The notes under the pieces are model-generated. The model was not told the DNA's origin, ran no database searches, and saw only the letters and a program-made list of their open reading frames with translations. The translations under genes were made by a program, and so were the position numbers. 42,080 nucleotides of DNA from Candidatus Eiseniibacteriota bacterium. Its GTDB lineage: Bacteria; Eisenbacteria; RBG-16-71-46. The stretch is from assembly GCA_031366795.1 (NCBI GenBank), contig JANLOX010000344.1, forward strand, positions 1 through 42,080, written 5' to 3'. Shown here in pieces: positions 601-13,127 of this stretch (position 1 is the first letter of the stretch; every line of letters begins with the position of its first letter).

Positions 601-738
601 CACGGCATCGATTCTGGGCCGCTGGGCCAGTCAGGGCAAGCGCTTGGGGGTAAGGCGGGGCGCAGGCGGGACGGAATTCAAAGCCCGCGGGATTAGGGCG
701 GCTTGAACAGGACGCGGTGTCTCGCCAGACTGTCCCCC

Positions 739-2688
739 ATGAATAACGCACGGAGCACGCACGGATGGACAGCGCTGCGACTTGCTGGGGTGTCCGTCGT
801 GGCTCTTGGGATGCTCCTTGCCGCATTCGGGTTCACGCCCGGTCCCGGCTACCGCGGGCTCTACCGGACGACGCTCGAACAGCTCGCCACTGAGCAGTCG
901 AGGCTCGTGGGGAAAATGGCCAGGGCAGGCGTGGGCTCTGGGGCGGGCCGCGACTCATTCAAGCATGAGATCGCCACGGCGCGGCTCAAGCTCAAAGCCG
1001 CCGACTTCTGGCTGCGCTACTTCGAGCCCAATGCCTACCGCCGGATCAATGGCCCGCTGCCGGTCGAGTGGGAAACGGAGGTGTTCGAGAAGTTCGAGAA
1101 GCCTTACCGCCGCGAGGGTGCGGGGCTGACGCTCGCGGAGTTGGCGTTGGACGATTCCACGGTGACGCGCGACTCGTTGCTCGCGCTGGTGCGGGCCTCG
1201 ATGTTGGCGGCGAAGGTATTCGAGGCGGACTCGATCACGCGCCAGCTGGCGAAGCCTGACCATTTCTTCCTCGCCAACCGGCTGTTCCTGCTGAATCTCG
1301 GCGCCATCTACACGACCGGTTTCGAATGTCCGGCGCCCGAACGCGTCATCCCCGAGCTGCGCTCGATGCTCGTGGGCACGCGCGACATTTACGCGGCGTT
1401 CGCGCGCGACTTCCCGGCCACCCCACTCAGCGCCGCCTATCTCGAGCGCTACGGTGCGGCGATCGCGTTTGTCCAGGCGCAGCCCGACGACTACGCAGCG
1501 TTCGATCACTTCGCCTTCATCCGCGACTACGTGAACCCGCTGTTCGCGATGAACCAGACGATGATTCTCGGCTACGCCGTCGCCTCGCACAGCGTGAACG
1601 ACTTCACGCTCAACGACTCGTGCGCCTCGATGTTCGACAAGGGGCTGTACAACGCCCAGAACACCAAAGGCGTCTACTCATTGATCGAGGACGCGCGCAC
1701 CCTCACGCAAATTCGCGAGACGGGCCGGTTGTTGTTCTACGACCCGCTGATGTCGGGGAACAACCAGCGCGCGTGCGTCTCGTGCCACAAGCCGGTGCAG
1801 TATTTCTCGGACCGCGCGGTCCCGACGCCCGAGGCGTTCGAGCACGCGGGCCGGCTCAAGCGCAACGCGCCATCGCTGGTCGATGCCCCGTTCAATCACC
1901 TGCTCATGCTCGATGGCCGGCATCTCACGCTGCAGGCTCAGGCCCACGACGTGATGACGAACCCCGCGGAACTCGGCAGCGTCGAGCAGGTGCTGGTTGA
2001 GAAAGTGATGAGCTGCAAGGACTACCGCTCGGCATTCCGCAGTTTCCTCAAGTGGATCCCGGAGGAGCCCAAGGTCACGCTGGACCACCTCATCTCGGCG
2101 ATCACGTTCTACTATGGTGGCTTCAGCTATTACCCCGCCGCGTTCGATGATGCGATCAATGGCAAGGCGACACTCGCACCTGAGGCGCACCGGGGTTTCA
2201 ACCTGTTCATGAGCAAAGCGCAATGCGCCACCTGCCACTTCGTTCCGCAGTTCAATGGGGTCAAGCCGCCGTATGTCGGATCGGAGTTCGAAGTGCTCGG
2301 TGTCCCCGCGGACACGTTGTACACACGGCTCGACCCGGACTCCGGCCGCGCGGTCGTGAATCCGGCCCTCGAGACCGTGCACGCGTTTCGCACGGGCTCG
2401 CTGCGCAACATCGCGCACACGGGCCCTTACATGCACAACGGAGTGTTCCGCACGCTGGACCAGGTCATCGAGTTCTACGACGCGGGAGGGGGTACGGGGC
2501 ATCACCTGAACGTGCCCAACCAGACACTCGCGGCGGACTCGTTGCACCTCACGGTCGGCGAAAAGTCGGATCTCCTCGCGTTCCTGCGCTCGCTCGATGA
2601 GCGTGTTCCCGTCGAGGCGCCGCCGGCGAAGTTGCCACGTTCCTCGCGTGCCGAGCTAAATCACCGCAAGATCGGGGGGGAGTACTAG
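739..2688 (+). CDS. Di-heme cytochrome c peroxidase/MauG-superfamily protein with a long N-terminal extension
   Basis: Two heme motifs (CVSCH, CATCH) plus GRLLFYDP, RNAPSL, GFNLF, FRTGSLRNIAHTGPYMHNG. Hydrophobic N-terminal signal/anchor. ATG 739 preferred over TTG 703. Confidence 0.9.
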   Translation: MNNARSTHGWTALRLAGVSVVALGMLLAAFGFTPGPGYRGLYRTTLEQLATEQSRLVGKMARAGVGSGAGRDSFKHEIATARLKLKAADFWLRYFEPNAYRRINGPLPVEWETEVFEKFEKPYRREGAGLTLAELALDDSTVTRDSLLALVRASMLAAKVFEADSITRQLAKPDHFFLANRLFLLNLGAIYTTGFECPAPERVIPELRSMLVGTRDIYAAFARDFPATPLSAAYLERYGAAIAFVQAQPDDYAAFDHFAFIRDYVNPLFAMNQTMILGYAVASHSVNDFTLNDSCASMFDKGLYNAQNTKGVYSLIEDARTLTQIRETGRLLFYDPLMSGNNQRACVSCHKPVQYFSDRAVPTPEAFEHAGRLKRNAPSLVDAPFNHLLMLDGRHLTLQAQAHDVMTNPAELGSVEQVLVEKVMSCKDYRSAFRSFLKWIPEEPKVTLDHLISAITFYYGGFSYYPAAFDDAINGKATLAPEAHRGFNLFMSKAQCATCHFVPQFNGVKPPYVGSEFEVLGVPADTLYTRLDPDSGRAVVNPALETVHAFRTGSLRNIAHTGPYMHNGVFRTLDQVIEFYDAGGGTGHHLNVPNQTLAADSLHLTVGEKSDLLAFLRSLDERVPVEAPPAKLPRSSRAELNHRKIGGEY

Positions 2689-2691
2689 CGC

Positions 2692-3090
2692 GTGACCGCT
2701 AAGCGAGGTATCCCTGTCGGCTGGCTCGCCGCGGCGGCGGGCGCGCTGCTGCTGTTCGCCGGCTGCGCCGCGCAGCGCAAGCTCGAATTCCCCGTCTCGC
2801 CCGACATAACACCCGGCAATCGCGCGCTGATGATCGAGCGCTACGACAAGGGCAAGATCCTGTTCCGCGCGAACTGCTCAGGCTGTCATGGCATCTTCGC
2901 CGCCGGCAAGGACAGCGTCCCGAATTTCAGCAAGGAACAGATCGACAACTACAACGCGAATTTCGTTAAGGGCGACCAGCGCAACCACGCGGTTGCGCGC
3001 AAGCTGAGCCAGCAACAGATTGACTACATCCTTACGTTCCTGGGGCTGCACAGCGCGGCTCATAACACGCCGCGCAAGCCTGCTCTCTAG
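2692..3090 (+). CDS. Monoheme c-type cytochrome lipoprotein
   Basis: Lipobox-like LLFAGC and GKILFRANCSGCH. Starts 3 nt after the peroxidase stop. Confidence 0.8.
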   Translation: MTAKRGIPVGWLAAAAGALLLFAGCAAQRKLEFPVSPDITPGNRALMIERYDKGKILFRANCSGCHGIFAAGKDSVPNFSKEQIDNYNANFVKGDQRNHAVARKLSQQQIDYILTFLGLHSAAHNTPRKPAL

Positions 3091-3135: not shown

Positions 3136-5751
<2,616 letters not shown>

Positions 5752-5839: not shown

Positions 5840-7159
5840 CTACCGCTTCAACACCTGCGGCGCCGAGTAGAACACCACCTGGTTCTTCGTCGAGCGCTTT
5901 GCCACGAGCAGGGCGTGGTTGGCCGCGCGCCACAGGTCGGTGGGCGTCTTCTCGTGCTCGGGGAACACGGCAACGCCGATGCTCACCGTGACCGCCACCT
6001 GGTGCGTGACGCCATCGAGGCCTTCGACGCGGACGGACGCGCGCTCCACCAGAGTGCGGAGGCGCTCCGAGATGGTGCGCACGTCGGGCAGGTGTACGGG
6101 CTCGGTGAGCAGCACCGCGAATTCCTCGCCACCCCAGCGGCACACCGTGTCGAACGGGCGCACCCCACTGCGCAGCGCCTGGGCGACCTGCACCAACACG
6201 TGATTGCCAGCTTCGTAGCCGAAGCGGCTGTTGAAAGTCTTGAAGTCGTCAATGTCGGCGATGCACAGCGCCATCGACGCTCCTTCACGATGGGCACGCG
6301 CCATTTCATTGAGCAGCTGCAGATCGAAGTAGGGACGGTTGTAGGCGCCCGTCAGCGGATCGACAAATACCAATGTCTCGATGCGCGAGGCGCGGTCGAG
6401 CGCGCTCGCGCAGCAATCGGCGATCAGCGCGATCAATGCGAGCGCCTCGGGCGGGAACGGGTCGGTATCGCCGCTGCGTATTTCGATCAGGCCGAGCGGC
6501 GGGCTATCGGCCGGTGTGACCGCGGCGAGTACGAAGGAGCGCACGCCGCTGCGTAACGGCACGCCGCGAAGTGCTGCGGTGGCCGTGGTGTCGGGGCAAT
6601 AGAACAGCGCGTTCGGCTCGAGCAACGCGGTGGCGATCCACGGGTCGCCACTGCCGGGAGGCGTGGCGCTCTGGGGTGCTGGCACGAAGCGCAATTCGCG
6701 CGCGCCTAATAATTCGCGGCCGATGCCATCGAGCTGGCTGAGCAACGCCGCGCGCGGATCGCCGGTGCGCGGATCGGACGAGAACAGCGGCTCGTCGACG
6801 CGCAGCAGCCGTCGCACATGCGCGAGCGCCGTTTGCGCCTGAGCCGGCAACGTCGCGCGCGGGACCACGCGCACGCCATCGCGCACTTCGAGTTGCGGCA
6901 GGCGCAACGTGATGATGTCGAGCCGGTCGCGTGTCTGGTAGCGCACGGTGCCGAGGTTGCCGTTCTTGCTCGGCGGCAGCTTCGAAACGAGGCCGTGCCG
7001 CTCGAGTTGCGCGAGCGCCAGCAACGCCGCCTGCTCGATCTGTTCAGACACGCCGGTGGTCAGGGCGCGTTGAACTTGCGCGCGCTCCGCCGCGGGCAGT
7101 GCGTGGAGCGGCAGCACGCGCTCGAGCAGACTCCTGAAGTCGATGTGTTCCTGAGGCAT
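5840..7159 (-). CDS. GAF-GGDEF diguanylate cyclase
   Basis: DPLTGAYNR, DIDDFK, RWGGEEF active site with an RPFD (RxxD) I-site. A GAF-like segment precedes it. Confidence 0.9.
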   Translation of the reverse strand: MPQEHIDFRSLLERVLPLHALPAAERAQVQRALTTGVSEQIEQAALLALAQLERHGLVSKLPPSKNGNLGTVRYQTRDRLDIITLRLPQLEVRDGVRVVPRATLPAQAQTALAHVRRLLRVDEPLFSSDPRTGDPRAALLSQLDGIGRELLGARELRFVPAPQSATPPGSGDPWIATALLEPNALFYCPDTTATAALRGVPLRSGVRSFVLAAVTPADSPPLGLIEIRSGDTDPFPPEALALIALIADCCASALDRASRIETLVFVDPLTGAYNRPYFDLQLLNEMARAHREGASMALCIADIDDFKTFNSRFGYEAGNHVLVQVAQALRSGVRPFDTVCRWGGEEFAVLLTEPVHLPDVRTISERLRTLVERASVRVEGLDGVTHQVAVTVSIGVAVFPEHEKTPTDLWRAANHALLVAKRSTKNQVVFYSAPQVLKR

Positions 7160-7362: not shown

Positions 7363-7830
7363 ATGCGGCTGTCCGAATTGCTCAATCCCAGTGCCGTCAC
7401 CCTGCGGCTAAAGTCCCGTGAAAAGCGCGAGGCCATCGTCGAACTGGTCCAACTGCTGGAGTCCGCGCATGGGATTGCGAGCCAGGGCGAGGTGCTCGAC
7501 CGCGTCCTGCGCCGCGAAGCCATGATGTCGACCGGCATCGGCTACGGCGTGGCGATCCCGCACGGCAAGGCCCGGGCCGCCGACCGCATGGTGGCAGCCT
7601 GCGCCGTGTCGCCCGAAGGCGTGGACTTCGCCGCGGATGATGGGCAACCGGTCTACCTGATGGTGCTGTTTGTCTCACCCGAAAGTGCGACGACCCAACA
7701 TGTTCGGGCACTCGCCAACCTGTCGCGGTTGATGAAGGAGGAGTCCGTGCGCCGCTCGCTGCGCGAGGCTCCGAACGTCGAGGCATTCCTCGCCACCTTG
7801 CAGGCCGCGGAAGGCGTCTATATCCCCTGA
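7363..7830 (+). CDS. Stand-alone PTS EIIA component (Fru/Ntr type)
   Basis: RE..MSTGIGYGVAIPH with the phospho-acceptor His, and HVRALANLSR. ATG 7363 follows GGAG. Confidence 0.9.
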   Translation: MRLSELLNPSAVTLRLKSREKREAIVELVQLLESAHGIASQGEVLDRVLRREAMMSTGIGYGVAIPHGKARAADRMVAACAVSPEGVDFAADDGQPVYLMVLFVSPESATTQHVRALANLSRLMKEESVRRSLREAPNVEAFLATLQAAEGVYIP

Positions 7831-7892: not shown

Positions 7893-8546
7893 ATGCAGTT
7901 CGTGGATGCGTGGACGAGCCTGGCGCCGCTTGAACTGTTGCTGCTGCTCGCCGCGCCCGGCATCGCCATCGCTGCTATGCTGCTGCCCGGCCGCGCCGTG
8001 GCGCGCACCGCCTCGATCGGCATGGCCTTCGCCGGCTCCGCGCTGCCTGACCAAGGTCCGCTCGAATTGCGCGCGGGCTGGTTCGTGCTGTGGATCGCGG
8101 TTTCGATCGTGTCGGGCTTCAAGCATGACATCACGCCGCGCGCCGGGCTCGCGCGTCCCGGCGGCGTCGAGTCGGGCGCGATCGCGTTGCTGCTCGGCGC
8201 AGGTTTGCTTGTGCTGCTGATCGTGGCGCTCGGCCGCCAGAACTTGTCGCCCGAGCTCACGCGCCCATCCGCCGTCGCGCTGGTGCTGATCATCGCGGGC
8301 GTCGCGCATTTGATGTTGCGGCGTGACGCGCTGCGCGGTGCGATGGCGTTCGCCACGATCGGGCTGGGTCTGCAGTGGCTCGACCGCGCCGCGCGCATCA
8401 GCGTGCTCGAAGCGCCGGCATTCCCCGAGGGTGCCGTGCTGGCCGCCACGGCGATCGCCGTGGCACTCGCCGCGCGCGTCGCGTTGATCCGCCAGCACGA
8501 CGCTGGCAGCGCGTGGGTCAGCCACGCGCACGATCTGCATGACTGA
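7893..8546 (+). CDS. Membrane protein, HyfE/NuoK-like (divergent)
   Basis: About 217 aa and multi-TM. The C-terminal half resembles NuoK/HyfE (IIAGVAHLMLRRDALR..., tail GSAWVSHAHDLHD). GGAGG precedes ATG 7893. Confidence 0.55.
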   Translation: MQFVDAWTSLAPLELLLLLAAPGIAIAAMLLPGRAVARTASIGMAFAGSALPDQGPLELRAGWFVLWIAVSIVSGFKHDITPRAGLARPGGVESGAIALLLGAGLLVLLIVALGRQNLSPELTRPSAVALVLIIAGVAHLMLRRDALRGAMAFATIGLGLQWLDRAARISVLEAPAFPEGAVLAATAIAVALAARVALIRQHDAGSAWVSHAHDLHD

Positions 8547-9897
8547 CGGGATGCCATTGACGCGCTGGCGTATCGACCCAGGCATCGCCGGGGCGATCGC
8601 GTGTGTTTCGGGACTCGCGCTGCTGGTCGTGCCCTCGTTGCTCGCGTGTGCGCTCGGGCTCGAGCTGTTGTCCGCGGCGTTCTGGCTGTGGGCGCGCACG
8701 GCGGCCGATGGCCGCGAACAGTTGCCACGCTGGGAATGGTTGCGCCGTCCCGCGATGGCCGCATGGCTGGCGTTCGCGGTCGATGCTGTGTTGTCGACTA
8801 TCACGCGCGATCCGCTGTTGCTGTCGGCGCCGCGTCTGGCACCGCTGTCGTGGCTCGAAGCCGCTGCGATCGTGTGGGCGGGGCTCGAACTCGTGGCGGC
8901 CTTGCCATTGGCGCGGCCCTATTCCGATTTCGCCGGACCCTATGAAGCGATGCGGCCGTGGATCCCGGTCGTGCTGCCCTCGGCGGGATTTCTCGCGTTG
9001 TGGACGCAGGCCGCGCACTGGGTGCCCGTGCCCGGCGTGCGCGATGTCGCGGTGACGCTGTTGGTGATCACCGCGCTGCTGTCCGCGCTCCGCGCCTTCG
9101 CGCGGCGCGGCTGGACCGCGAGCCTGCGCTGGCTGTGCGTGACGCAAACATCGCTCGCCTTGTTGCCGCTTGCGCAACGAACCGTGCATCCGCAGGCGTT
9201 ATTCCTGCTGTGGCTCGGCGCCTTCGGCGGCCCGGCGTTCGTGCTCGCCGGCGAGCTGTCGGGCGCTTCGCCTCGCCGTGGAAAATTCAATGCGCGACTG
9301 TGGCGCGCTGCCGGATGGGTTTCGGCCTCCTGCGTGGCGTGGCCCGCGCTGGTGGTGTTCGCCACCGGACGGGCGGCCCCGGTTTCCGTGCCGCTCTACC
9401 TCGCGACCGCCGTGTCCGCCGGCATCGCCGCGTGGATCATGGTGGGACGTCTCGAGGTCGCGCCCGAACGCCGCCGCCTGATGCGGCCAGGTTCCGGCGG
9501 CACGTCTGGACGCATCGCCGCCTTCATCGTGCTGGCGTTGGGCCCGCTCGGCCTGTCGATCGCATGGTGGTTCAGCTTCGAGCCCGCGTGGATTCCCAGT
9601 GTGATGAGCCTGGCGCCTGTGGCGATCGGCGGCGTGCTCGCCGTCGCTCCGCGCCAGAAGCAAGTCGTGCATCTCGCCCACCGCTTGAAGCGCCCGGCAC
9701 TGGGCCTGCGCATGGCGGCAGGCACGGCGTTTCGCTGGTCGGTGCGCACCGAACAAACCGCACTCCGCGCGGTGCTGTCGTTCGCCCGGCTGCTCGGCGC
9801 GCCCTTGCGCGACCTGCACACCGGTGACGCGCAGGAATACCTGCTGCTGCTCGCCGGAGTATCCGTGCTCGCACTCCTGCTGCCGTTGCTCCGATGA
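8539..9897 (+). CDS. Membrane protein, divergent NuoL/MrpA/HyfB-like antiporter-fold subunit
   Basis: Hydrophobic, with LGLELLSAAFWLW (TM5-like Glu) and a C-terminal amphipathic stretch plus RDLHTGDAQEYLLLL resembling the NuoL end. Overlaps the previous stop (ATGACTGA). Confidence 0.6.
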   Translation: MTDGMPLTRWRIDPGIAGAIACVSGLALLVVPSLLACALGLELLSAAFWLWARTAADGREQLPRWEWLRRPAMAAWLAFAVDAVLSTITRDPLLLSAPRLAPLSWLEAAAIVWAGLELVAALPLARPYSDFAGPYEAMRPWIPVVLPSAGFLALWTQAAHWVPVPGVRDVAVTLLVITALLSALRAFARRGWTASLRWLCVTQTSLALLPLAQRTVHPQALFLLWLGAFGGPAFVLAGELSGASPRRGKFNARLWRAAGWVSASCVAWPALVVFATGRAAPVSVPLYLATAVSAGIAAWIMVGRLEVAPERRRLMRPGSGGTSGRIAAFIVLALGPLGLSIAWWFSFEPAWIPSVMSLAPVAIGGVLAVAPRQKQVVHLAHRLKRPALGLRMAAGTAFRWSVRTEQTALRAVLSFARLLGAPLRDLHTGDAQEYLLLLAGVSVLALLLPLLR

Positions 9898-11084
9898 TGG
9901 CGCATATTCTGCTCATTTGCGCGATCGCATTGGTCGGCGTCGCCGCACTCGGCCTGTGGTTCGATCGCGGCCGTCGCGGGGGTCCCCTCGAGATGGCCGC
10001 GCTGTTGCCGCTGCTGCCGCTCGTCGCGGTCGTCACCGGGCGTTGGATGCCGGCGCCCTACGGGGTAGTCCTTGTGCTGGCACTGGTCGTCGCGATGTTG
10101 TCGCGCTCGCGTGATGACGTGTTGCACAGCGAGTGCGCGCTCAAGCTGCTGTGGGTGCTGGGGCCGGCGTTGGCGATTTCGTTCGCCGGCGTGGCGCTAA
10201 TGGCGATCGCTACCGGCACCTCGGTGAATGCCGAGCAATGGGCTGTGATGGCGTTGCCGCTCGAGCCCGCGATGTTGTGGACGATCTCGCTATCGCTTTC
10301 GCTGATCGTAGGTTTCGTGCTGATTGGCGGCGCGCCATTCCACTTCTGGGCTGCCGACGTGATGCAGGGGAGCCGTGCGTGGATGGGCGCGCTCGCTGTC
10401 GGCGCACTGCAAACGTGCGGTGCCGCGTGGTTCGCCTGGCGGCTCGAAGGGATCGACGCGCTGCCCGAAGCCGCGCGCATCGCCGGCGCATTGCTCGGCG
10501 CGGGCGCTGCTGTCGCGTTCGTCGTCGGCGCGATTACCTTGCCGTTCCAGCGCCGCCCCGAGCGCCGCGTCGGAACGCTCGCAAGTCTCAATGGAGGACT
10601 GCTGCTCGCCTCGCTCGCGGTGCGCTTCGGTGGCGCGCCCAATGCGGCGGCCGGCTTTCACGTGCCGCTGTGGAGCGCGCATCTCGCGCTGGCATTGAGT
10701 GGTGCCGCGACGCTCGCACCATTCCTGCCCGTCACCGTCCGCGCCCCGGCGCCCGGCACCGTGTTGTTCCGCCGACACCCCGCATGGGGCGCCATCGGCC
10801 TGTATTCGCTCGCCTCACTCGCGGGAGTTCCCGGCACGCCGGGTGCCACACTGTGGTTCAGCGGTGCGCGCATGCTGGTGGCGACATCGCGCACCGGCCT
10901 GCTCATGTTGCTTGCCTTCGCGTGGGTCACCGCGTTCGCGATCGTCGTGCGGCAGGTGCGTGAGGCATACGGTGTGTGGTCAGAAGCCCCGCTGCCCCCA
11001 CGCGGCGTACCCGCCGTGGCGCGATGGGCGATGCTCGTGGGCTGCGCGGGGCTGGTGGCGATGGCGGTGGGGCTGCGCGGGTAG
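9894..11084 (+). CDS. Membrane protein, divergent NuoN/MrpD-like antiporter-fold subunit
   Basis: SECALK, APFHFWAADVMQG, LFRRHP and SLAGVPGTPG match NuoN-type motifs. ATGA overlap with the previous gene. Confidence 0.75.
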   Translation: MMAHILLICAIALVGVAALGLWFDRGRRGGPLEMAALLPLLPLVAVVTGRWMPAPYGVVLVLALVVAMLSRSRDDVLHSECALKLLWVLGPALAISFAGVALMAIATGTSVNAEQWAVMALPLEPAMLWTISLSLSLIVGFVLIGGAPFHFWAADVMQGSRAWMGALAVGALQTCGAAWFAWRLEGIDALPEAARIAGALLGAGAAVAFVVGAITLPFQRRPERRVGTLASLNGGLLLASLAVRFGGAPNAAAGFHVPLWSAHLALALSGAATLAPFLPVTVRAPAPGTVLFRRHPAWGAIGLYSLASLAGVPGTPGATLWFSGARMLVATSRTGLLMLLAFAWVTAFAIVVRQVREAYGVWSEAPLPPRGVPAVARWAMLVGCAGLVAMAVGLRG

Positions 11085-11119: not shown

Positions 11120-13127
11120 TCACGGCATCAACACGATCCGAGTTCCCACCGAGAGGGAGTTCTGTGTGAGACGCGCCCAATACACGCCCGCTGAAAGCCA
11201 TGCGTTTGTGTTGAGCGCGGCGCCCGTCGCGCCGGATGCCACGCGCTTGATGGGCATTGACTCCACGCGGCGCCCCGCGATGTCGAAGAGATCCAGGGTC
11301 GCTGGATCCGCGGTGAGGAGAGTGCAAGCGAGCTGCACCCGGCCCCGCGCAGGGTTTCCATGGCTCAACGACAACGTCAGTGTGGCGGCGGGAACGTACA
11401 GTTCAATCGGCGCTGTGTGTTGAGCGACGCCACCGACGAGATAGTCGAGCCGGTACGAGTAATGCGCTCCCGCCCGGACACTGGCGTCAGTAAATGAGAG
11501 GAGCCCGCTGGCGTCGCTCCATGCGGTTCCAACTTCACGCCAGCCCCCCATGCTTAGAGGATTTCCGGGTCTGCAGACGTCGTCCCCCGGCGCGGCGGGA
11601 GGGAGAGCCCCTCCGCCCATCCGGGCAAAGCTCGCGGTTCCATCGTTGAGATAGACGACCAACGAGTCTGTCGAGTAGCCACCGTAGGCGGCCGCAATAT
11701 CCGAGCGCCCCTCTGCATTGAAATCCCCGAGGGTGATAAGGGCGTCTTCTCGTGGCAAGTCCGAGCCTGCGACGATCAGCGTTGGCTGCAGGTAGCCGTG
11801 GGCCGGGTCCCGGTAAGAGATCATGAGGGTTGGCCCCACTGGCCCGATCAGGAGATCGTCGAGTCCGTCCCCGTTGAAGTCGCCATGCCCCAGGATTGCC
11901 CCGCCGGGAAGCGCAGGAATGACCGTATGTCCTCCGCCATCGTACTGAATGTCGAGTGAGTCCCCGCGAGGAATTCCCCGATCGCTACAGCCGTCAGCAT
12001 TCCAATCGATTGAGACGCCGCCCGGAATGGTTTCTGGCCCCGCGTAGTCGATAGGCGTCGCGAAGCCGCGAGCCGCGACGTGGCGAAATCCGAGAAGGTC
12101 GTCGGAGTAGTTGTTGCCAGTGATGGGCAAATCGACGACGTCGAACAGGCCATCGAGATCAAAGTCGGACGCAAGGAGAGCCGTGGTCATGTGCGGAGAC
12201 GCGTTATCCGCGATGAACAGGCGAACCTGCTCCCAGTTGCGTGAACCCACGTTCCATTCGATCAAGATGCGATCGTTGTACCGCAAGCTCGAAGCGGCGA
12301 ACAGGTCCAATCGCCCATCGCCATTGAGATCCGCCACCGCCATCCGGTTCGCGAATTCGCTCGTGCCGGGCACATGTTGTGGTTCGGCGGAAAGTCCCGA
12401 ACCGGAATTCCAGAAAACCGCGAATGAGCCATCGGATTCCGGGAGCACGAGGTCGAGGGCGCCGTCGCGATCAAAATCTGCGAGGATCGGGTTACGAGGT
12501 GTCCCACATTCCGAAGGCGAGCGAATTGGGAACGTGCAGTGCGCCCGTGCTGTTCCCTGGATAGATCAGGGTCTTGTCGCCGAGTGTCACGACGATGTCC
12601 GCGTATCCGTCGCGATCCACGTCGCCCATGGTGAGCCCAGTAATCAAATTGTGGGGCTCCAGAGGAATTGCGTACCTCGCTGGCGGCTCGAAATTTGTGC
12701 CGTTGCTGAACAGGATCGACAATGAATCGTCGTATGTCGCAAGATCCGGGTGCTTGTCGCCGTTGAAGTCCCCCGAAGCGAGTTGCCACGTGGCACGCAT
12801 CGTCAGGGTCTGCGCTGACCGGAATGCGCCGCCGCCGAGTCCGGTAAGTAGCGTGAGCCGATTCGAGTCAGGGTCACATCCCGCGCCACAACCCATCGAG
12901 ATCGTGGCGATATCGATCACGCCATCCGCGTTGAAGTCCGCCGCGACCAGTGCGCCGGGTCGCTGACACGGAATCGTACTCTTGATGCGCAGCCCGCCCG
13001 CGCCACGGCACACGTCAAAGACAGTCGCTGCGATTGCTGCTAAGTACTGCACGCGCACCATTGCAGCGATGCGCTTGCGTGGGGCTGTCATCCGGGCGAC
13101 CTCTCCATGGTCCGGCACTGTAGTCAC
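11120..13127 (-). pseudogene. FG-GAP repeat secreted protein with FlgD/T9SS-like C-terminal domain, split by a frameshift
   Basis: ORFs 12492..13127 and 11120..12448 both carry DFNxDG repeats. The second frame continues upstream as PRNPILADFDRDGALDLVLPE across the first ORF's stop, so there is a frameshift near 12495-12535. C-terminus: NPARG...LFDIAGRRV...AGVYWARL. Confidence 0.75.

Follow-up and report, generated by a model that had tools for sequence, protein, structure and literature searches.

The antiporter-like subunits of complex I are, to our knowledge, known only as ion pumps, and a locus of a Candidatus Eiseniibacteriota bacterium raises the question of what they do when the residues used for pumping are gone. 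The locus lies in a 42,080-nucleotide stretch of DNA (contig JANLOX010000344.1 of assembly GCA_031366795.1; hereafter the window) and comprises three consecutive + strand genes, which we call the trio: a NuoJ-NuoK fusion of 217 amino acids (JK; 7893-8546), a NuoL-derived protein of 452 amino acids (L; 8539-9897) and a NuoN-derived protein of 396 amino acids (N; 9894-11084). We consider it an even chance that the trio, a shrunken set of complex I paralogues kept by selection, would form a predicted short L-N-JK arm that does not pump and would likely act as a scaffold for a cytoplasmic partner. An earlier, sequence-only reading of the window had reported three open genes joined by stop/start overlaps, with no Fe-S, hydrogenase, NuoH, Mrp small-subunit or DabA gene nearby. 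All three open reading frames (ORFs) are indeed open; JK and L overlap by eight bases (ATGACTGA at 8539-8546) and L and N by four (ATGA at 9894-9897), and an ATGA or GTGA overlap ends the L gene in 40 of the 40 related loci where that end is present. A Pfam scan of 26 chosen window ORFs returned no Fe-S, hydrogenase, NuoH or Mrp small-subunit protein and no DabA-type match, the remaining genome not having been searched for DabA.

Pfam matched none of the three proteins, and NCBIfam matched N alone and weakly (TIGR01770, E 1.7e-7, far under the cut-off). The N protein is nevertheless NuoN-derived. Profile-profile comparison assigns it to NuoN with a probability of 99.7, its best PDB match is mycobacterial NuoN, and its AlphaFold2 model (predicted local distance difference test score, pLDDT, 95.5) aligns with E. 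coli NuoN (7z80_N) at Z 32.3. Because the match to E. coli NuoN begins at about residue 75-79, transmembrane helices (TM) 1 and 2 are missing and the protein spans TM3-TM14. A search of 1.84 billion representatives returned the window's family first, followed by full-length proteins, none of them better than E 2e-12, and 10 of the 10 tested nearest outside proteins were NuoN above the cut-off.

The other two proteins are identified differently: comparing sequence profiles of L and JK with those of NuoL, NuoJ and NuoK gave probabilities below 3%, so that predicted structure, motifs and position are what identify them. L has no sequence-level match in Pfam, NCBIfam or PDB, and is NuoL-derived by its AlphaFold2 model (pLDDT 87.7), which has the fold of NuoL from TM4 to TM16, including a shortened lateral helix (residues 374-428) ahead of TM16 (432-451). 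NuoL, ND5 or NdhF chains made up 49 of the 50 Foldseek matches shown, and the match to E. coli NuoL (Z 23.9) begins at residue 111, the first helices of NuoL being absent; the true start of L may be the ATG at 8551. JK had been described as NuoK-like. Its HyfE-like layout stands, and the predicted structure makes it a J-K fusion rather than a plain NuoK: over residues 8-217, an Atlas model scored TM 0.74 to HyfE clusters and 0.79 to a NuoK/NuoJ fusion cluster (all predicted models), and the K part aligns to HyfE with an equally short third helix. Oxidored_q2 is matched weakly by 11 of 69 JK members (best E 0.0029). The J part resembles the NuoJ profile only at E 0.018-0.2, and carries two near-invariant tryptophans (W63, 100%; W67, 99%) on what we take to be the helix that faces NuoA/NuoH in complex I.

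We then compared the proteins with the residues of the complex I proton path, using E. coli numbering verified on fetched K-12 genes and column counts from 69 JK, 115 N and 118 L homologues. Every axis Lys, as well as NuoK E36 and E72, is gone across these homologues; the axis residues are canonical in six of six intact operons at the corresponding slot of related families, described below, and absent in 15 of 15 sequences of the window's family. In N, NuoN E133 has no counterpart (TM5 has no Glu), K217 is Leu or Met (L143 in the window), K247 is Q173 and K395 is W321 in 100% of sequences, and H305 is Asn, Gln or His. In L, NuoL K229 is L118 in 100% of sequences, D178 is Ala or Gly, H254 is hydrophobic, and H334, H338, K342 and K399 are not retained, the K399 column being unconserved. 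The middle and terminal lysines of complex I (NuoN K247 and K395; NuoL K342 and K399) thus have no equivalent in the trio, and of the TM5 Glu/TM7 Lys pairs N lacks both members and L retains only E144, as E42 (99%). The JK column for NuoK E36 is Ala in 75% and Gly in 23% (A154 in the window), and that for E72 falls in an alignment gap of uncertain register; acids occur in the second K helix of 18 and the third of 7 of the 69 sequences, and the NuoK RR motif is kept. All substitutions listed by the sequence-only reading are therefore real, among them those at NuoN K217, K247 and K395, NuoL K229 and NuoK E36, as is the retained Glu of LGLEL, and no other axis Lys or Glu is kept.

That reading had called the proteins stripped of their pumping residues, which is true of the axis Lys and most Glu; it had missed E42, R70, E117 and the D203-H/R232 pair of L, all kept or new. 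Buried polar and charged residues do occur in the trio proteins. In L, R70 (100%) and E117 (98%, beside the lost K229) are buried, and the set E42-R70-E117/D occurs in 117 of 118 sequences. An H or R at 232, beside the K342 position (the TM11 register is uncertain owing to alignment gaps), is found in 83% and co-occurs with an acid at D203 in 98 of 118; in 17 sequences, those of the window's clade among them, position 232 is Pro and the acid at 203 is replaced as well, these sequences being kin and hence not independent. N keeps both helix breaks of its discontinuous helices, together with invariant Q173, S231, H263, S308 and T315, of which H263 is new. It also keeps the cytoplasm-side E154, K158 and H224 of NuoN, the latter two presumably lateral-helix anchors. 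The structural motifs said to persist do so (PFH, SLAGxP, lateral helix and TM16), with the amendments that the lateral helix is shortened and the first helices of L and N are lost.

The trio very probably pumps no protons. The accessible parts of the papers cited here report that E. coli complex I with K247A or K395A retains ~6-17% activity in proteoliposomes, E133A being harmless (PMC13073174), that isolated subunits cease to conduct protons once the middle or terminal Lys is removed (PMC11496545), and that mutants of NuoN K158, at the cytoplasmic surface, have moderate effects (PMC3046159).

The stripped trio is a family-wide trait rather than a strain oddity. Among 200 other genomes of the phylum, 86 from the window's family and 114 from outside it, N was found in 76 and JK in 81 of the 86, and JK in none of the 114; none of the 19 N matches outside the family is better than E 1e-9, and the five that could be placed are canonical nuoN. 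The order JK-L-N holds at 38 of 41 family loci, the remainder being broken by contig ends, and of 56 metagenomic loci, 23 belong to the family and show this order over whatever part of it they cover. Substitution patterns indicate that the trio is under purifying selection: the ratio of nonsynonymous to synonymous rates (dN/dS) to the closest species is 0.05 for JK, 0.07 for L and 0.07 for N, against 0.04 for clpB, and six other close pairs give 0.13-0.44. Relatives are equally stripped, which speaks against strain-specific decay. The genes are full length in 27-28 genera, and the trio proteins have 23, 31 and 11 invariant columns. Taken over 364-372 pairs, most of them distant, the median rises to 0.64-0.76, with some values above 1; these pairs are saturated, as dS plateaus at ~0.5-0.6 in GC-rich genes and the GGDEF gene gives 0.56 on identical pairs. 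Identity across 15 genomes is 41-50% for the trio versus 76% for canonical NuoL.

All 14 canonical nuo subunits are encoded elsewhere in the genome, nuoB-CD-E-F-G-I on contig C19 and nuoA-H-J-K-L-M-N on C24/C134, with one NuoH and one NuoD only. Canonical antiporter-like genes are present in 86 of 86 family genomes and a separate, true hyfE in 52 of 86. No NuoA, NuoH, NuoM or quinone module belonging to the trio was found at 41 loci, where copies as diverged as L could escape detection; nor were degenerate NuoA, H, B, CD or I found elsewhere in the genome, by canonical profiles that also missed the trio's own L and JK and so lack the sensitivity to rule such partners out. This search gave two weak matches on contig C425, which look to us like the cell-division genes mraY and ftsW. 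Among genera, the canonical nuo genes are split variously (etfA-nuoA-H..., nuoF-G-H..., nuoA-E-F-H...; G000:C24, L115-L124, L179-L183).

The origin of the trio can be approached from the gene in front of it. A stand-alone enzyme IIA (EIIA) of the phosphotransferase system (PTS), of PtsN/fructose type and with its phospho-acceptor His motif present, is encoded at 7363-7830 on the + strand (PF00359, E 7.5e-31). It lies immediately 5' of JK at 37 of 41 family loci, the other four being broken by contig ends, with a gap of ~2-145 bases (median 61, n=37), and is likely the first gene of the trio operon; a promoter scan found no sites. Close counterparts of the EIIA gene occur throughout the class, which makes the same locus readable in other families. 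In two of them (f9 and f17) EIIA heads an intact operon, nuoA-B-CD-H-I-J-K, a zinc-ribbon tetratricopeptide repeat (TPR) gene between nuoK and nuoL, and nuoL-M-N; it is whole in G018, G030 and G068, with vanZ-hisS next, has nuoN displaced in G082 and is split between contigs in G077 and G108. Genome G033 reads EIIA-J-K-L-M-N-hemA-vanZ, and four of five checked genomes with the intact operon hold two intact L-M-N sets. In the sister family f2 the slot holds a different remnant. Behind EIIA come the A/H-position membrane genes, of which there are one or two (a label given by position only, since neither the NuoA nor the NuoH profile matches the protein), then J/K, which some genera have fused, and the TPR gene; next are a free lateral-helix/TM16 protein of 80 residues and M and N subunits stripped of their charges, and ccsA, hemA and vanZ-hisS follow. 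With K234 turned into R, K247 into P and K395 into R, the stripped f2 subunits carry substitutions unlike those of the window's family. Family f3 keeps EIIA-TPR, and f7 and f14 have no nuo gene at the locus.

Both flanks and the gene order point to the trio as what is left of an EIIA-led nuo operon, and it is likely the remnant of a second nuo operon. The tail of the family's L has its best match in the free tail of f2 (E 4.9e-6), and vanZ lies within 3 kb 3' of the trio at 11 of 41 family loci; the TPR gene was found in none of the 86 family genomes. The sequence-only reading, which had called the trio a repurposed scaffold, sensor or carrier of another solute and no piece of complex I, was right that this is not a working complex I and had missed both EIIA and the origin in a second nuo slot. 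The f2 remnant loci are L136:3524-9461, L141, L127, L157 and L173, in which the zinc-ribbon TPR gene is well conserved.

The predicted architecture suggests how so few subunits could fit together. From the TM15 Gly to the TM16 Gly, the family's L has a median of 64 residues (54-96), compared with 85 in E. coli and 84-87 in 11 of 12 second-set NuoL proteins. As far as their accessible text goes, published work allots ~26 residues of lateral helix to each extra subunit, with exceptions (PMC9040806), and describes the MrpA helix as bracing MrpD (PMC7419157). A 64-residue brace fits L packed straight on N, as MrpA is on MrpD, and the loss of NuoM together with a lateral helix shorter by 21-23 residues suggests that L would dock directly onto N. 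Columns conserved in at least 90% of sequences fall mainly on the cytoplasmic side (sides assigned by homology), at 54 of 192 cytoplasmic versus 8 of 102 periplasmic columns in L and 40 of 126 versus 13 of 101 in N.

In our model, L, N and JK would assemble as a short, self-contained membrane arm in which E42 of L would face W321 of N, where the relay Lys stood; the remaining buried charges would be paired and structural, and the Arg/Trp-rich cytoplasmic face would serve as a binding surface. Scaffolding is slightly the more probable job over carrying. The most plausible cytoplasmic partner would be EIIA: it leads the operon, HPr and enzyme I-family genes are present in the genome, EIIA genes lie near some hyf/Ehr operons, and E. 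coli PtsN offers an analogy, being described in the accessible text of PMC11808508 as binding and regulating a membrane antiporter. This choice of partner is a guess, and one that we would expect to fail appreciably more often than succeed. More broadly, and at clearly less than even odds, we tentatively propose that the complex I arm has a second, pumping-independent role, of which the window's family would represent a minimal PTS-linked L-N-JK pseudo-antiporter and f2 another minimal unit, with NuoL surviving only as a free 80-residue brace, in a recurrent class of complex I-derived pseudo-transporters.

Several observations pull the other way. The family NuoN profile scores second-set NuoN (median 29.7 bits) above slot NuoN (10.8), and approximately unbiased (AU) tests reject neither paralogue as donor (p 0.31, 0.135 and 0.156); NuoN trees (a quick tree of 54 rows and one of 26) have stems of 4.5-7.8 changes per column where long branches meet, and because these dominate, the trees do not settle the donor operon. 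The helix is an imperfect ruler: intact NuoL at the slot (L147-L150, L160, L162) has a lateral helix ~25 residues longer than usual (112 versus 85-87) with one nuoM, and the family itself ranges over 54-96. The cytoplasmic bias in conservation, counted in trio proteins only, arises in part from the positive-inside rule and lateral-helix contacts. EIIA remains at the locus in families without any nuo gene there, so that its adjacency may be history only. Finally, the polar core of N (Q173, T228, S231, N/Q/H233, H263, S308, T315) and its helix breaks exceed what a scaffold obviously needs.

This last point bears on the strongest alternative, in which the trio has been rewired to carry or channel Na+, some other cation or a small solute; E42 and E117 of L and the polar core of N would be the path, and EIIA would be the gate, a role that it has for other cation transporters. 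The E42-R70-E117/D set and the retained discontinuous helices with their invariant polar residues are what a carrier might keep, and NuoL with K229A or E144Q still rescued growth of a B. subtilis mrpA deletion on Na+ in the accessible part of PMC4938563, such that the lost residues do not exclude Na+ movement. By contrast, bulky Trp and Leu are fixed at the axis, TM12 of L is predicted to be unbroken and lacks a K399 equivalent, neither MrpB/E/F/G nor a partner that could energise transport is encoded at the locus, the window's clade does without the D203-H/R232 pair, and the trio has drifted much further than canonical NuoL. On balance we regard a carrier as unlikely, though a serious contender. 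Less probable by far is that the trio docks as a decoy or placeholder where NuoA/NuoH end the real complex I, for off-state storage or as an assembly aid. A complete canonical complex I is available, with canonical antiporter-like genes in every family genome, and the J-K module and RR motif are retained; however, the J part is unlike NuoJ and bears W63/W67 on the helix that faces NuoA/NuoH in complex I, while NuoA and NuoH are canonical, and in f2 the A/H-position genes changed together with the remnant. We think it very improbable that the trio still moves protons via replacement residues (E117, H/R232, H263, and E161 in some JK), several of which are protonatable and one position off the classic sites: Lys is scarce (0.7% of L, 0.3% of N), no redox or Na+ module is present as driver, the chain is cut at JK, at TM5/7/8/12 of N and at TM8/12 of L, and H/R232 and E161 are missing from the window's own proteins. 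A slowly decaying, functionless relic, suggested by the loss of the same operon in neighbouring families and by the high distant-pair dN/dS, is largely refuted by the saturation of those pairs, the low ratios of the closest ones (0.05-0.44), and the full-length genes and invariant columns.

The trio shares folds with complex I, Mrp, Hyf/Ehr and DAB yet fits the described members of none. With the complex I arm (E. coli 7z80, 7p7l, 3rko; M. smegmatis 8e9g) it has in common the folds, the J-K-L-N order, the lateral helix with TM16, the NuoN PFH and SLAGxP motifs, the cytoplasmic E154/K158/H224 and NuoL E144. It differs in lacking NuoM, NuoA, NuoH and the peripheral arm at its locus, in its fused J and K, its missing first helices and shorter lateral helix, and in the replacement of the axis Lys and NuoK E36/E72. 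The Mrp (CPA3) proteins MrpA-MrpD-MrpC (6z16, 7qru, 7d3u) share the predicted geometry of one L-type helix bracing one N-type subunit beside a K-type one, as in the accessible text of PMC7419157, with Z 22.6 for L to MrpA and 30.1 for N to MrpD. In the trio, however, the J part is fused to K and not L, MrpB/E/F/G and the axis residues are absent and N is NuoN-derived; L stops at TM16, and the trio has EIIA in front of it and vanZ or unrelated genes behind.

For HyfE/HyfB/HyfF of formate hydrogenlyase-2 and Ehr, the likeness is the HyfE length and fold of JK. Yet JK matches the HyfE profile weakly (E 0.0076) and that of f2 J-K at least as well (0.002), N matches NuoN (3e-16) rather than HyfF (7e-4), and the locus has no HyfC or HyfG/I-like soluble or hydrogenase-like genes; an origin of the trio from HyfE was considered and is not supported. 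In some family genomes a second EIIA gene stands inside or just before hyf/Ehr-type operons, within 1.5 kb at 3 of 30 hyfE loci (L170:8641-8937, L171:2816-3118, L243-L245). Complex I variants (2M complexes; Complex_I_3 of Manganitrophaceae) resemble the trio in that lateral-helix length follows antiporter subunit number, but those add pumping subunits, whereas the trio lost one along with its pumping residues. From the DAB/MpsAB inorganic-carbon pump the trio differs in that no DabA match lies beside its NuoL-like gene among the scanned window ORFs. A literature search, with subscription journals and supplements outside its reach, found no description of such a module.

A selected trio without pumping residues would mean that the fold has another use, and a single locus displays the full series from intact operon through two distinct remnants to loss. 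At 1065 residues, the trio is a natural null for coupling models, separating proton-transfer from structural residues, and it bears on whether a shorter lateral helix lowers subunit number just as a longer one raises it. A NuoN-like annotation in these genomes need not mean a second proton pump.

The genes to the left of EIIA serve as flank markers. A divergent GAF-GGDEF diguanylate cyclase (5840-7159, - strand; PF00990, PF01590) stands at 35 of the 41 family loci, is shared by families whose nuo operon is intact or missing, and is only a candidate member of the system. It has an intact GGEEF motif, with an RxxD site five residues upstream. The idea of a cyclic di-GMP receptor came from an RxxxR at 312-316 of L and the adjoining GGDEF gene, which occurs with or without the trio. 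Next to it, clpB (3136-5751, + strand; TIGR03346 above cut-off) has the same position in other families. A MauG/MbnH-like di-heme protein and then a small c-type cytochrome lie 5' of clpB (703-3090), as they do at locus L004. Beyond the trio, two neighbouring FG-GAP repeat ORFs on the - strand (11120-13127) may together be a single split gene; the second has a C-terminal sorting-type domain. Secreted proteins are encoded in series across 17735-40877, their domains being of the M43 peptidase, PKD, laminin-G, kelch and FlgD types, together with two Ser/Thr kinases (with TPR and PD40 tails) and SEC-C proteins.

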